Source: Escherichia coli (GTDB lineage: Bacteria; Pseudomonadota; Gammaproteobacteria; Enterobacterales; Enterobacteriaceae). From it: a stretch of 2,313 nt of DNA. Location of the stretch: assembly GCF_024223415.1 (NCBI RefSeq), contig NZ_CP100508.1; one strand, 5' to 3'. The notes under the pieces were generated by a model. That model did not search any database, was not told the DNA's origin, and saw nothing but the letters and a program-made list of their open reading frames with translations. The first letter of the stretch is position 1. Each line of letters begins with the position of its first letter. Shown one piece after another: positions 1 through 2,313 of this stretch. A program made the position numbers and the translations under genes.

Positions 1-81
1 ACATCGACGGTCTATGACCACCCACCAACCGAGTAGCTGCCCATCCCGTGCAAATGGGCTTTGCAGGGGGCTGGCGCGGTT

Positions 82-139
82 CCTGGCGACCTGAAAGCCC
101 CTAGTTAGGGGTATCGGCGCGCCTGGCCTCCTGAAACCC
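82..139. repeat. Imperfect direct repeat in the GC-rich left flank
   Basis: CCTGGCGACCTGAAAGCCC (82-100) and CCTGGCCTCCTGAAACCC (122-139) are about 15/18 identical with one indel, 40 bp apart. Short hairpins lie nearby: CCCCT-AGTT-AGGGG (98-111) and ATGCCC-TGAC-GGGCAT (165-180). All three forward frames hit stop codons within the first 100 bp. Confidence 0.3.
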
Positions 140-491
140 TCTGTAAGCGTTTTTCGCGCCTTCCATGCCCTGACGGGCATTTAGACCCCGTTTCGTGCGT
201 CTGGGAGGCTCTGAGCGCGTTTAACAGATGACCAGCGACTCGATCGCCTGAGATCAAATCGGGATCATCAACGATATGCGAGAGGTGGCACCGCTCGCCG
301 CAGCCCCAGCGACCGAGCCGCCAGGCTCGCGAGTGGGCGAGGAAGCGGAAGAGAACCGGAAGCTACATTGAGCACGCACGCTCAATATTAAAATTGTCAC
401 TTCGTAAATAGAGATTATGCCTCGTGCTTGTGGATACATTTAAAAATATAAGATATCCGAATTAGGCTACATACGGGCTGATCGCCAATGT

Positions 492-557
492 TGTAACGTG
501 TAGAAGATACACCTGTAACGTGTACAGGATACACCTGTAACGTGTGGGCGGTATTCG
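492..557. repeat. Iteron array: 22-bp direct repeats, two near-identical units plus one degenerate unit
   Basis: Unit 1 at 492-513 TGTAACGTGTAGAAGATACACC and unit 2 at 514-535 TGTAACGTGTACAGGATACACC are head-to-tail and 20/22 identical. Unit 3 at 536-557 TGTAACGTGTGGGCGGTATTCG keeps only the first 10 bp. The array ends about 80 bp upstream of the rep start codon. Confidence 0.8.
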
Positions 558-568
558 CGTAATCTATA

Positions 569-629
569 TTGAGTGACATTTTGTTTTTTGGGCATTATAT
601 TGTTTGTCACCTTTATAAAGTGACAAAGG
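569..629 (+). promoter_or_regulatory. Candidate rep promoter, operator-like inverted repeat and RBS
   Basis: Candidate -35 GTGACA at 573-578, 17-nt spacer, -10 TATATT at 596-601 (alternative: TTGAGT 569-574 with CATTAT 593-598). Perfect 8-bp inverted repeat TTTGTCAC (603-610) / GTGACAAA (620-627) with a 9-nt spacer, placed at the predicted transcript start and abutting the Shine-Dalgarno AAAGG (625-629). No transcription data; positions are from consensus matching only. Confidence 0.35.
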
Positions 630-636
630 CGATAAA

Positions 637-1134
637 ATGAACATTACTGAAAGAACGGATAGCAAGAAAAAAGTTTTAAGACAAAATATTACTGAGGTTA
701 TAGATAGAGAAACTGGAAACGTAACACAAGAAATAACCGATATAACAGTTCAATTTCCACAAGAACCTGCGTATGTGAAAATTTATATTGATAATTTATG
801 TGCTGTCACAAAAGCACCTGATTCTCTAAAAGATGTTTTATTTTTAATTCTTAGGAAATTGGATTATGACGGATATATTGCATTATCAACTAGATACCGT
901 AAGGAGATCTGTAAATTATTGGGAATAAAAGACGGAACATTACGTAACAGATTGTATTCATTATCAAAAATGGGGATTATTGCTAGTTGTGGCGGTAATG
1001 AATATCAGGCAAACCCTAATTTATTTGCTCGTGGTGAATGGAAAAAAATAATTGAACAGCGTCGCGAGTTTGAAATGAGAATTAAATATTCACCTAACGG
1101 TGAAACTATTATAACAACCGAAGAAATAAAATAA
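637..1134 (+). CDS. Putative plasmid replication initiator, small single winged-helix protein, RepL-like (165 aa)
   Basis: Intact ATG(637)..TAA(1132-1134) ORF from the six-frame track. AAAGG Shine-Dalgarno at 625-629, 7 nt before the ATG. Central segment DVLFLILRKLDYDGYIALSTRYRKEICKLLGIKDGTLRNRLYSLSKMGII reads as a winged helix-turn-helix. Overall size and layout (YVKIYI hydrophobic block, HTH, C-terminal NPNLFARGEWKK) resemble the RepL family (Pfam PF05732) as I recall it; this is from memory, not a search. Lies directly downstream of 22-bp tandem iterons. AT-rich codon usage matches the surrounding module. Confidence 0.7.
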   Translation: MNITERTDSKKKVLRQNITEVIDRETGNVTQEITDITVQFPQEPAYVKIYIDNLCAVTKAPDSLKDVLFLILRKLDYDGYIALSTRYRKEICKLLGIKDGTLRNRLYSLSKMGIIASCGGNEYQANPNLFARGEWKKIIEQRREFEMRIKYSPNGETIITTEEIK

Positions 1135-1143
1135 TGCGCACCT

Positions 1144-1173
1144 AAATAAGGTCTTTTTAAAAAGACCTTATTT
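1144..1173. terminator. Candidate bidirectional intrinsic terminator between convergent rep and RHH genes (perfect 30-bp palindrome)
   Basis: AAATAAGGTCTTTTT (1144-1158) is the exact reverse complement of AAAAAGACCTTATTT (1159-1173). It starts 10 bp after the rep stop codon and overlaps the RHH gene stop codon (1168-1170). The hairpin is AU-rich with a weak U-tract, so termination efficiency is uncertain. Confidence 0.5.
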
Positions 1174-1593
1174 GAATAAATCCGAACCTGGATATTTATT
1201 TTTATGTAGCCTTTTTATTATTTTTATTTCATCCTTTATTAAATCCATTTCATTATATATATCAGAAATTCGCTTCGTTACTATTTTCATTTCATCGCAA
1301 AGTAAAATTATTTTATGCATCACCTCGAGGTACTCTTTATCCTTCGGCCGCTTTCCCTTATCAAATAATTTTTTCTGCATCCGACCAAGTCGGATTAATT
1401 CATATAAATACCTGGAAGGTACGCGCTGTTTTATTTCATTATTTAAACTTGCCGTCCTGATATATTCTGAAATTGTCAGTCCTTCGTTCTTCGCTCGCCG
1501 TCTGATTTCGCTTGCAAGTCTGTTATTTACTCTAAGGGTGATAACCTTAGTTCTCTGCCGTACTTCTGAACCACTACGTTTATTTTTAGCCAT
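1168..1593 (-). CDS. Ribbon-helix-helix domain protein, MobC/MbeC-like relaxosome accessory protein or CopG-like plasmid regulator (141 aa from ATG at 1593; the track ORF 1168..1692 uses an upstream GTG)
   Basis: Minus-strand ORF ending in TAA (complement of 1168-1170). N-terminal KVITLRVNNRLASEIRRRAKNEGLTISEYIRTASLN matches the RHH pattern (beta-strand, helix, G, helix with S.SEYIR) typical of MobC/MbeC/CopG proteins. C-terminal half is K/E-rich and helical. Start at ATG 1593 preferred: GGAGAG Shine-Dalgarno lies 8 nt upstream on the minus strand (complement of 1602-1607), whereas the 33-codon extension to GTG 1692 is GC-richer than the gene body and has no properly spaced RBS. Confidence 0.65.
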   Translation of the reverse strand: MAKNKRSGSEVRQRTKVITLRVNNRLASEIRRRAKNEGLTISEYIRTASLNNEIKQRVPSRYLYELIRLGRMQKKLFDKGKRPKDKEYLEVMHKIILLCDEMKIVTKRISDIYNEMDLIKDEIKIIKRLHKNKYPGSDLFK

Positions 1594-1662
1594 CGCAATG
1601 ACTCTCCATTTTGCACGTTTGGGGTGTCGGGGCTTGCCCTGACAGGAGGTATTCTCATGCAA

Positions 1663-1690
1663 GCGAATGTATTCGCGGTATGACGAATAC
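1663..1690 (-). promoter_or_regulatory. Inverted-repeat cluster upstream of the RHH gene (candidate operator)
   Basis: GCGAAT (1663-1668) / ATTCGC (1671-1676) form a 6-bp inverted repeat with a 2-nt spacer. GTATTCG (1669-1675) / CGAATAC (1684-1690) form an overlapping 7-bp inverted repeat with an 8-nt spacer. Located 70-100 bp upstream of ATG 1593 on the minus strand. RHH proteins commonly autoregulate through such repeats, but no clean -35/-10 pair was found. Confidence 0.3.
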
Positions 1691-2160
1691 ACATCCTATC
1701 CCATTTTCCGCTGCAACTTTTCAACGAAAATAAAATACCGCGTCGTAACCTAGTATTTCTGATACAAAAAAATGATGCTTCATTCAATATTATTTATACA
1801 GATTTTAAAAATTATTGATTGTTATTTAATAAATAACACCGAATTAATTGATGTCTTTGTTGTCTGTCGTTTGTAGATTATTAGAGGAATAAAGATTAGA
1901 TCTTCTTGGTTATATAATCCATTGCCTGTTGGTAATGCGGGATTCGTCCAGAGAGCAGGAGGCAAAAGAGCAAGATGGTAGCATATGCATAAAATATAAC
2001 TATGTGAGTTATTGATATCGCGTTTATATATTAAAAATATAACTTAACGTCGCTCCTAATCTTTATTTCATCCTGGCAATGGGAGCATTAATCCCCGTGC
2101 AGTGCTCCGCCAGCTGCTGACAACCTCGACATATAACCATCGATACGATAGAACATCAGG

Positions 2161-2300
2161 GCGCGTTTCCGGCAAGAACTAACCATGGGGATGGTTTGCG
2201 TGCCAACGAACGCCGGAAACGCGCTTCAAACCTACCGAGTCGCCACGGTTCCGGCAGCGCCTTGAGCGCAACCGGAAACCGTCTGGGGAGAACCCCAGAC
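2161..2300. repeat. GC-rich cluster of three hairpin-forming inverted repeats, function unknown
   Basis: Hairpin 1: perfect 13-bp inverted repeat GCGCGTTTCCGGC (2161-2173) / GCCGGAAACGCGC (2212-2224), with a nested hairpin AACCAT-GGGG-ATGGTT (2181-2196) in the 38-nt spacer. Hairpin 2: imperfect inverted repeat CGGTTCCGGCAGCGC / GCGCAACCGGAAACCG (2246-2281). Hairpin 3: 8-bp stem GTCTGGGG / CCCCAGAC with loop AGAA (2281-2300). The motif TTCCGG/CCGGAA recurs four times. None is followed by a T-tract. Confidence 0.4.
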
Positions 2301-2313
2301 CCCCACCGCTGCA

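Follow-up and report, generated by a model that had tools for sequence, protein, structure and literature searches.

A sharp base-composition change in a small Escherichia coli plasmid with RepL and NikA modules and a hairpin-rich non-coding segment

Introduction

When base composition changes abruptly within a 2,313-nt stretch of Escherichia coli DNA (the window, by which we mean the whole stretch analysed here), has a foreign replicon been captured, or can such a change belong to the replicon itself? A first-pass annotation of the window had described an AT-rich two-gene module between two GC-rich flanks, with sharp breaks at about 362–386 and about 2070. These breaks are confirmed: a maximum-likelihood two-segment GC model fitted on the circle placed change points at 384 and 2071, with GC of 0.338 inside 384–2071 and 0.608 outside, and gained 67 log-likelihood units where 200 shuffles gained 5.4 on average and 10.5 at most. 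The same steps appear in a 100-nt GC profile. Because the window is circular, the two flanks are not separate but form one contiguous segment of about 0.63 kb, 2071..2313 joined to 1..384. We conclude that this abrupt shift in composition, though real, is nothing out of the ordinary. The window is a relaxase-less mobilisable E. coli plasmid in which we distinguish three modules (Table 1), and we consider the account of them given below probable on the whole.

A complete and already catalogued plasmid

Full-length matches to 2,313-bp circular records establish that the window is a complete circular E. coli plasmid of this length. It is 99.7% identical from end to end to pPK8275-2.3kb (NZ_CP080170.1), and at least 18 PLSDB records (counted as those covering at least 80% of the window) match it over its full length at 96–99.7% identity. 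About 18 sibling plasmids of 2.31 kb come from E. coli, E. fergusonii and Klebsiella hosts; pPK8275-2.3kb and these siblings are the same plasmid as the window, with RepL and MobA/NikA annotated and point differences only. The replication module was detected in 26 of 5,426 complete E. coli genomes and was plasmid-borne every time. The plasmid is already catalogued in public records, and its novelty is low. A scan of genome contigs returned useful homologues mixed with chance matches in large contigs, and scans of viral contigs returned chance-level 16-mer matches or none.

Table 1. Features of the 2,313-bp plasmid, in the coordinates of the window
Feature	Position	Strand	Details
GC-rich segment, second part	1..384		change point 384
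Small hairpin GCCCAT/ATGGGC	39..59	+	persists in relatives by way of one-sided changes and G-T wobbles (pairs at alignment columns 134-154)
Homologue of ColE1 ssiA (phiX174-type primosome assembly site)	291..353	+	CCGCTCGCCGCAG...GCGAGGAAGCGGAAGAG
Three 22-bp direct repeats (iterons)	492..557	+	start with TGTAACGTGT
rep promoter-like site and palindrome TTGTCAC..GTGACAA	573..627	+	GTGACA-17-TATATT, 10/12 matches; palindrome at 603-627
rep, RepL family	637..1134	+	165 aa; RefSeq name RepL
Perfect palindrome between convergent rep and nikA	1144..1173		inverted repeat
nikA/mobA, ribbon-helix-helix relaxosome accessory protein	1168..1593	-	141 aa
IncI-type oriT	1621..1702	+	GGGGTGTCGGGGC box; 8-bp inverted repeat 1668-1675 / 1684-1691; nick region CATCCTA|TCCC
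AT-rich non-coding spacer	1703..2070		GC down to 0.18; accompanies the nikA-oriT block on other small plasmids
GC-rich segment, first part	2071..2313		change point 2071; circular record; no annotated feature under the match
Long hairpin	2161..2224		13-bp perfect arms 2161-2173 / 2212-2224; conserved loop with CCATGGGGATGGTTTG
Two adjacent hairpins	2249..2300		TTCCGG..GCGC/GCGC..CCGGAA, and GTCTGGGG-AGAA-CCCCAGAC; consensus fold

The replication module

The replication module is low in GC and RepL-type, and runs from an ssi and a spacer through three 22-bp iterons and a likely operator palindrome to rep. Its Rep protein matches the Pfam RepL family (PF05732; E = 1.9e-4, residues 10–138), aligns by tblastn with annotated RepL of Bacillus and Priestia at E values of 1e-11 to 1e-15, and shares 24% identity over 117 aa with RepL of pSN2 (E = 0.004); among NCBIfam profiles, no match to Rep was found. 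Many members of the RepL family are found on Bacillus and Priestia plasmids. The palindrome ahead of rep is likely the rep operator, and that between the convergent rep and nikA genes likely acts as a bidirectional terminator. A single 8/9 match to the DnaA box at 429–437 is at chance level, with one or more such matches in 107 of 200 shuffles.

The ssi of this module is a homologue of ColE1 ssiA, and the block is conserved in ColE1, pPCP1, a 4-kb MOBQ plasmid, IncX4, and plasmids of ~1.5 kb, with CCGCTCGCCGCAG and GCGAGGAAGCGGAA invariant in the alignment. In ColE1, it lies ~100–170 nt beyond the end of RNAII (RNAI at 645–749, the block at about 1300–1367), in agreement with the literature, which places ssiA downstream of the origin of ColE1 (PMC3167613, PMC5935869). 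Compensatory changes occur at three pairs of the ssiA inner stem between two lineages, and minimum-free-energy folds of single variants disagree. Inside ssiA, GCCGCCAGGCTC replaces ACGTAGTGA in the window and in the near-identical record L001, a replacement that is absent from the 2,310- and 2,437-bp variants L003 and L063. The same layout (ssi, ~135 nt, iterons, rep) was found in a relative, L073, whose Rep is 64% identical and which carries three copies of the same iteron core, with the same ssiA ends 110 nt upstream of these iterons.

The mobilisation module

The mobilisation module is low in GC and IncI-type, and is made up of nikA, oriT, and an AT-rich leading spacer. NikA scored 96 bits against NCBIfam MobA (cut-off 80), matched Pfam NikA-like (PF21983) at E = 2e-15, and is 50% identical to IncI1 NikA. 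Alignment with the IncI1 plasmid pEC20-3 revealed that the oriT has the layout of the region upstream of IncI1 nikA, including the nick region CATCCTN|TCCC, and the nick is predicted at 1698|1699. The block 1172–2070 is shared at 87–94% with plasmids of 2.3–3.1 kb that are without the window's rep sequence.

With two genes only and no relaxase (NikB) open reading frame on the plasmid, mobilisation would need a relaxase in trans, which a co-resident I-complex plasmid would supply. In a natural cointegrate, the window plasmid sits in the oriT of the IncK2/Z plasmid pTMSA992, and the crossover falls within 1690–1707. A crossover at the predicted nic site suggests that the oriT may work and is consistent with relaxase-mediated recombination between two oriTs.

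Origin of the composition step

The first-pass annotation suggested that the AT-rich module had been horizontally acquired or recombined, for example as a foreign cassette captured by a GC-rich plasmid backbone, and proposed separate database searches of the two parts. In plasmid searches, the GC segment matched 1,666 plasmid records and the AT-rich core only 42; the two parts are distributed differently and so have different histories. This part of the proposal stands, and the kin of RepL on Bacillus and Priestia plasmids, together with the low-GC-host origin proposed as possible for the distantly related pHW126 family (PMC2831885), also favor the proposed capture. The GC-rich backbone does not stand: the GC-rich part is only 0.63 kb, non-coding, and without a maintenance gene, whereas the core for replication and mobilisation, the AT-rich part, is the plasmid's own. 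Nor did a plasmid search with the GC segment reveal a GC-rich parent that has replication genes of its own and is empty at 384/2071. The composition boundary at 362–384 falls within the replication-module layout, where the ssi upstream of the iterons belongs to the module in L073 and in pHW126-like plasmids alike (PMC6854812). Moreover, rep and nikA are separate modules; the block 1172–2070 is found with other replication regions, and the arrangement is stable across the 96–99.7% identity of the full-length records. That at least 18 independent records match the whole window from end to end as one plasmid family also argues against the reading as a horizontally acquired module. We therefore consider recent capture of a foreign two-gene replicon cassette unlikely.

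Our own reading is that of a modular mosaic, in which low-GC RepL and NikA modules appear to be joined to a portable, structure-constrained strand-initiation module. Two causes may have contributed to the composition step: modules with separate histories could be exchanged by recombination between small plasmids where these have sequence in common, as at ssiA, and the hairpin module could be kept GC-rich by its structure. An abrupt GC shift within a small replicon is not in itself a sign of recent capture or of a chimeric assembly; in the window, it divides the low-GC modules for replication and mobilisation from a non-coding module rich in hairpins.

The GC-rich non-coding segment

As the first reading of the flanks had it, the GC-rich segment is non-coding: no features are annotated in it in RefSeq records, and its longest open frame has no coding signal. 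It is also rich in hairpins. The short similarities reported between the flanks also exist, with ACCGAGCCGCCAGG at 312–325 and ACCGAGTCGCCACGG at 2234–2248 differing by a one-base indel and AACCGGAA present at both 354–361 and 2270–2277. Most of the 1,666 matching records are ~1.5-kb plasmids, and the others include ColE1-like, IncX4, and MOBQ plasmids, in which sub-blocks of the segment recur. The stretch 2234..381 (~460 bp) has 82–88% identity to the ~1.5-kb plasmids, which encode an unrelated Rep.

The segment is also strongly structured. For the + strand of the joined 605 nt, the folding z-score is -5.8; 2151–2300 reaches about -7, and the strongest z-score on the plasmid lies over the two adjacent hairpins. 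When G-T wobble pairs were used to tell the strands apart across the entire module, the minus strand folded no worse than the +. Compensatory or structure-preserving changes were found in the ssiA inner stem and in the hairpins at 2161–2224 and 2249–2277, in few lineages and with few independent events. The long hairpin has a homologue in ColE1-like plasmids and in Y. pestis pPCP1, and its stem shows a compensatory replacement of C-G by T-A. In L028 the tip of the first of the two adjacent hairpins is flipped with the stem kept. In the ColE1-like plasmid L011, the long-hairpin element is opposite in orientation to the neighboring oriT box, so it is not consistently on the transferred strand.

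Homology and shared structure suggest that the GC segment is probably a DNA-priming signal common to many small plasmids, although its functionally characterised homologue covers only ~65 of the 630 nt. Because ssiA aligns with the RNAII-sense strand of ColE1, it reads on the + strand of the window, which we infer to be the nicked, transferred strand as well. This strand may become exposed by displacement during RepL-driven replication, or by delivery into a recipient cell from the predicted nick. Once single-stranded, its hairpins would fold and the putative ssiA would let PriA assemble a primosome, from which complementary-strand synthesis would start. We suggest, tentatively, that the ~460-bp stretch as a whole could act, whatever the replicon, as a portable cassette for establishment or for complementary-strand initiation, moved between unrelated small plasmids by recombination at its ssiA-like ends. 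It would then be what typing reports as Col(MG828), and the label would denote a priming module and not a replication system. A so far undescribed function might reside in the ~400 nt outside ssiA, for example in further priming sites, a structured RNA, or a single-strand promoter.

The segment might instead be the true origin or copy control, for example as a ColE1-like "Col(MG828)" replicon that is primed by RNA or as a structured RNA with a regulatory role, with RepL as an auxiliary. Its strong structure, its inclusion of the ssiA block that flanks the ColE1 origin, and the typing of its carriers as Col(MG828) whatever their Rep would all fit such a role. However, an Rfam search of the window and of a rotated contiguous copy found no family in the GC segment, and RNAI (RF00106) had no match in either copy, whereas a ColE1 control scored 73.8 bits. 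A promoter scan likewise found no site in the segment (the plasmid total is below that of shuffles), and similarity to ColE1 is limited to ssiA, with none to the RNAII region. Each carrier examined in detail has its own rep or ori, and in L073 no more than a compact ssiA-like element accompanies the related RepL gene and iterons. These observations make an origin in the GC segment improbable.

Even less probable is a site for multimer resolution or other recombination. Such sites are usual on small high-copy plasmids, deletion of the ssi in pHW126-like plasmids leads to multimers (PMC6854812), and the module boundaries coincide with the repeated motifs at 312–361 and 2234–2277, but no XerC/XerD core was found with up to three mismatches and a 6- or 8-nt spacer, and we regard this role as very doubtful. 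That the contig is chimeric, or that the flanks conceal a protein-coding gene, is effectively refuted: the same circle has been assembled independently many times, in at least 18 full-length records, and the longest open frame, which spans the record start on the minus strand (2179..180; 104 aa), was rejected as a gene because it shows no codon periodicity, with 23, 20, and 19 variable columns at the three codon positions.

Implications for plasmid typing

In the proposed mosaic, the Col(MG828) call probably tracks the shared non-coding module and not the initiator. The label can mislead typing, as it is common to RepL plasmids, to ~1.5-kb plasmids with an unrelated Rep, and to the IncK cointegrate. 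The plasmid is also typed as non-mobilizable despite a good IncI-type oriT, nikA, and a natural cointegrate at an IncK oriT, and so would add to the cases of hitchhiking on a relaxase in trans that typing tools overlook.

Comparison with known systems

The initiator resembles those of the pSN2-type RepL plasmids of Firmicutes (PF05732), which, like the window, are small and low in GC and have a Rep homologous along its length; compared by sequence alone, the window differs in its Enterobacteriaceae host, its IncI-type oriT and nikA, and its ColE1-type ssiA. The ssiA in turn resembles that of ColE1/pBR322 (n'-pas) as a block of ~60 nt with the same ends and the same orientation, though it adjoins a Rep and iteron origin in the window and an RNAII origin in ColE1/pBR322, and the inner sequences differ.

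In size (2.3–3 kb), low GC, and enterobacterial hosts, the window is like pHW126, pIGRK, and pIGMS31, and in pHW126-like plasmids, too, the replication module is paired with interchangeable mobilisation modules (PMC2831885, PMC6854812, 10.1101/2022.12.05.519187). Their layout runs from ssi through a conserved region, 20+2-bp iterons, and an inverted repeat to rep; their Rep is distantly related to RepL, and their ssi is dispensable but stabilising (10.1101/2022.12.05.519187; PMC6854812). The low GC of this distantly related family is already published. In the window, the order is ssi at 291–353, 22-bp iterons at 492–557, palindrome at 603–627, and rep from 637, and its Rep gave no significant pairwise alignment with pIGRK RepR as taken from a machine-read paper supplement. 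The window has three iterons and not four, and in length its GC-rich segment far exceeds the palindromic ssi of these plasmids.

The ~1.5-kb Col(MG828) plasmids (for example NZ_CP081198.1), which are presumably pKL1-like, share 2234..381 including ssiA, as well as an IncI-like oriT, with the window, but have an unrelated Rep, no nikA, and two inversely oriented oriTs. Finally, the window is like the NikA-bearing relaxase-less small plasmids pCERC7, NTP16, and pU302S and the pBuzz-type oriT hitchhikers, which are mobilised via nikA and/or an IncI-like oriT with a relaxase in trans (PMC9282650); those are ColE1-like or rolling-circle replicons, whereas the window joins a RepL replicon to a different variant of NikA.

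Identity and composition of the plasmid

The window is a complete plasmid: 2,313-bp circular records from E. coli and E. fergusonii match it over its full length at 99.7%, and 18 records span 80% or more of it with identities of 96% or higher. The best match, pPK8275-2.3kb (NZ_CP080170.1), has two annotated genes, RepL and MobA. This is an already known small cryptic plasmid, whose replication module we detected in 26 of 5,426 complete E. coli genomes, plasmid-borne every time. The full-length matches to circular plasmid records exclude a chimeric contig, and because the plasmid is complete, the two GC-rich flanks described in the first-pass annotation are one contiguous segment of ~0.63 kb spanning the record start.

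The sharp change in composition reported at the edges of that segment is real. A two-segment model of the circular sequence placed boundaries at 384 and 2071, with a GC content of 0.338 inside and 0.608 outside; the log-likelihood gain was 67, whereas none of 200 shuffles exceeded 10.5, and the same steps were visible in the 100-nt profile of the window. The annotation had proposed a foreign replicon cassette captured by a GC-rich backbone, and had named a full-length match to one plasmid family, such as we found, as speaking against it. The proposal was right in part, in that the plasmid is mosaic, its modules differing in history, but the picture of a foreign cassette inside a GC-rich backbone is wrong.

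A 96%-identical copy of 2,310 bp is recorded from a Pasteurellaceae host, Actinobacillus pleuropneumoniae (NZ_CP031857.1), which points to a broader host range or to contamination. In a 2,836-bp variant from APEC IMT5155 (NZ_CP005932.1), the rep region matches at two places, which suggests its partial duplication. A scan of genome contigs also recovered 0.4-2.4 kb contigs with the GC-rich module in assemblies of unrelated taxa, including Streptomyces, Bradyrhizobium, Streptococcus, Mycobacterium, and Flagellimonas (L028, L033, L036, L041-L046, L059, L061, L063, L065-L067, L069, and L071). These often comprise a whole ~1.5-kb or 2.3-2.4-kb plasmid, with coverage below 1 in some, and are probably laboratory or sequencing-run contamination by E. 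coli small plasmids.

Features of the plasmid, in window coordinates (two dots mark intervals that cross the record start)
Feature	Position	Strand	Remarks
Block a, homologue of the ColE1 ssiA primosome assembly site	291-353		homology on to 381
Three 22-bp direct repeats (iterons)	492-557		
Promoter-like site	573-601		
Palindrome	603-627		follows promoter-like site
rep	637-1134		165-aa Rep; Pfam RepL match
Perfect 30-nt palindrome	1144-1173		between convergent rep and nikA
nikA	1168-1593	minus	141-aa ribbon-helix-helix protein; NCBIfam MobA, 96 bits; Pfam NikA-like
Block c, long hairpin	2119-2231		13-bp perfect arms and conserved loop
Arginine-rich open frame	2179..180	minus	104 aa; stays open in several relatives
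Block b	2234..381		~460 bp; 82-88% to ~1.5-kb plasmids typed Col(MG828)

Mobilization module

The nikA product is 50% identical to IncI1 NikA, and upstream of its gene we detected an oriT laid out like that of IncI1, in which a GGGGTGTCGGGGC box is accompanied by an inverted repeat and by CATCCTA|TCCC as the nick region; the plasmid encodes no relaxase. The block 1172-2070, comprising nikA, oriT, and an AT-rich spacer, matches 2.3-3.1-kb plasmids at 87-94% that have no match to the window's rep region, so rep and nikA are separable modules. One conjugative plasmid, the IncK2/Z plasmid pTMSA992 (L074, NZ_KR905387.1), contains a complete integrated copy of the plasmid at 2501-4830. The insertion site is pTMSA992's own oriT, adjoining its nikA and relaxase genes. 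Hybrid oriTs form both junctions, and the crossover falls within window positions 1690-1707, at CATCCTG|TCC. This cointegrate looks like the product expected of relaxase-mediated oriT-oriT recombination, and as such would lend independent support to the window's oriT.

GC-rich segment

The GC-rich segment is non-coding: RefSeq annotates nothing in it, and no Rfam family was found in it, either on the window or on a rotated copy with the segment contiguous. Its degree of structure is unusual, with fold z-scores of -5.8 for the joined 605 nt and about -7 for 2151-2300. The segment alone matched 1,666 plasmid records vs 42 for the AT-rich core. In an alignment of 17 copies, three kinds of change keep the structure: the inner ssiA stem varies by compensatory substitutions, the 39-59 hairpin varies through wobble pairs, and one copy has a flipped hairpin tip. 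A coding role was considered for the arginine-rich open frame and rejected: variable sites are even over codon positions, with no periodicity, and the frame most likely arises incidentally from conserved sequence of high GC content.

Across ColE1, Y. pestis pPCP1, a MOBQ 4-kb plasmid, an IncX4 plasmid, and the ~1.5-kb plasmids, block a has invariant ends, CCGCTCGCCGCAG and GCGAGGAAGCGGAA. The ColE1 copy lies ~100-170 nt beyond the RNAII end, the place at which the ColE1 single-strand initiation site (ssi) has been located (PMC3167613, PMC5935869). The interior at 317-328 reads GCCGCCAGGCTC in the window and the near-identical L001, ACGTAGTGA in the 2,310- and 2,437-bp variants L003 and L063, and ACGTTAGTGA in the ~1.5-kb plasmids. 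The short similarities noted between the flanks do exist at the coordinates given, the first pair differing by a one-base indel, and the GCCGCCAGGCTC replacement gives rise to the one with 2234-2248 (317-328 vs 2239-2248). This replacement, which also creates a new 6-bp hairpin, may be a conversion between these two repeat units.

Block c is common to ColE1-like plasmids and pPCP1, with a compensatory C-G to T-A change in its stem. In ColE1-like plasmids, an inverted GGGTGTCGGGGC-type oriT box stands directly before the 2161-2224 hairpin element (2985-3015 in L011, one such plasmid); window 2100-2130 resembles this box only weakly (CTGACAACCTCGACA vs CCCGACACCCTCGACA) and may represent a second oriT, inverted and now decayed. 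In a ~1.6-kb relative (L028, ~1560-1590, equivalent to window 2255-2271), an exact inversion at the tip of the 2249-2277 hairpin turns GCGCCTTGAGCGC into GCGCTCAAGGCGC, with the stem kept.

Block b is shared with ~1.5-kb plasmids whose Rep is unrelated to the window's, and part of it (133-350) is also found beside replication genes in IncX4 and in a 24-kb plasmid. The MOB-suite/PlasmidFinder label Col(MG828) falls on the RepL plasmid NZ_CP080170.1, on ~1.5-kb plasmids with the unrelated Rep (NZ_CP081198.1), and on the IncK cointegrate NZ_KR905387.1. The GC-rich non-coding module is the only sequence that NZ_CP081198.1 has in common with the window, and a related RepL plasmid of K. aerogenes without the module (L073) received no replicon call. 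We infer that the label seems to mark the non-coding GC-rich module, not an initiator. Two oriT-like sites in opposite orientations are also present on NZ_CP081198.1, an IncI/R64-like one right after ssiA and a ColE1 bom-like one, an arrangement reported for pBuzz-type hitchhiker plasmids.

The ssiA homologue aligns with the RNAII-sense (displaced) strand of ColE1, which would make the + strand the active one here; in a wobble-pair comparison of the two strands over the whole module, the minus strand folded at least as well. If the nick follows the pattern of IncI and IncP regions, the + strand would be cut at 1698|1699 and enter the recipient 5' end first, with the AT-rich spacer leading, the GC-rich segment following, and nikA last. 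The segment would be single-stranded in the correct sense after conjugative entry, and also during replication, should RepL displace the + strand; in either situation, it could prime the complementary strand.

Replication module and comparison with known plasmids

The window's Rep matched RepL genes annotated in Bacillus and Priestia (tblastn, E 1e-11 to 1e-15) and is alignable with pSN2 RepL along its length; no significant similarity was found to RepR of pIGRK, from the pHW126 clade. The 30-nt palindrome beyond rep is likely a bidirectional terminator; its match to a snoRNA family in Rfam is a meaningless chance hit (E = 0.71). Rep of L073 is 64% identical to the window's and the iteron core is the same; a compact ssiA-like element that shares the conserved ends of block a stands 110 nt upstream of the L073 iterons.

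In the window, as in L073, an ssiA homologue precedes the iterons, and for pHW126-like plasmids the succession of ssi, conserved region, 20+2 bp iterons, inverted repeat, and rep has been described from experiments (PMC6854812; 10.1101/2022.12.05.519187). These layouts place the composition boundary at 362-384 inside a functional replication layout, and it is not a cassette junction. The boundary coincides with the end of the sequence common to many plasmids, and is therefore likely a recombination point. The Rep of pHW126-like plasmids is a distant relative of RepL, and these plasmids can replicate without the ssi, although lacking it leads to a higher copy number and to multimers (PMC6854812; 10.1101/2022.12.05.519187). 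The strikingly low GC content of this family has been noted earlier, and an origin in Gram-positives or other low-GC hosts has been discussed as possible (PMC2831885).
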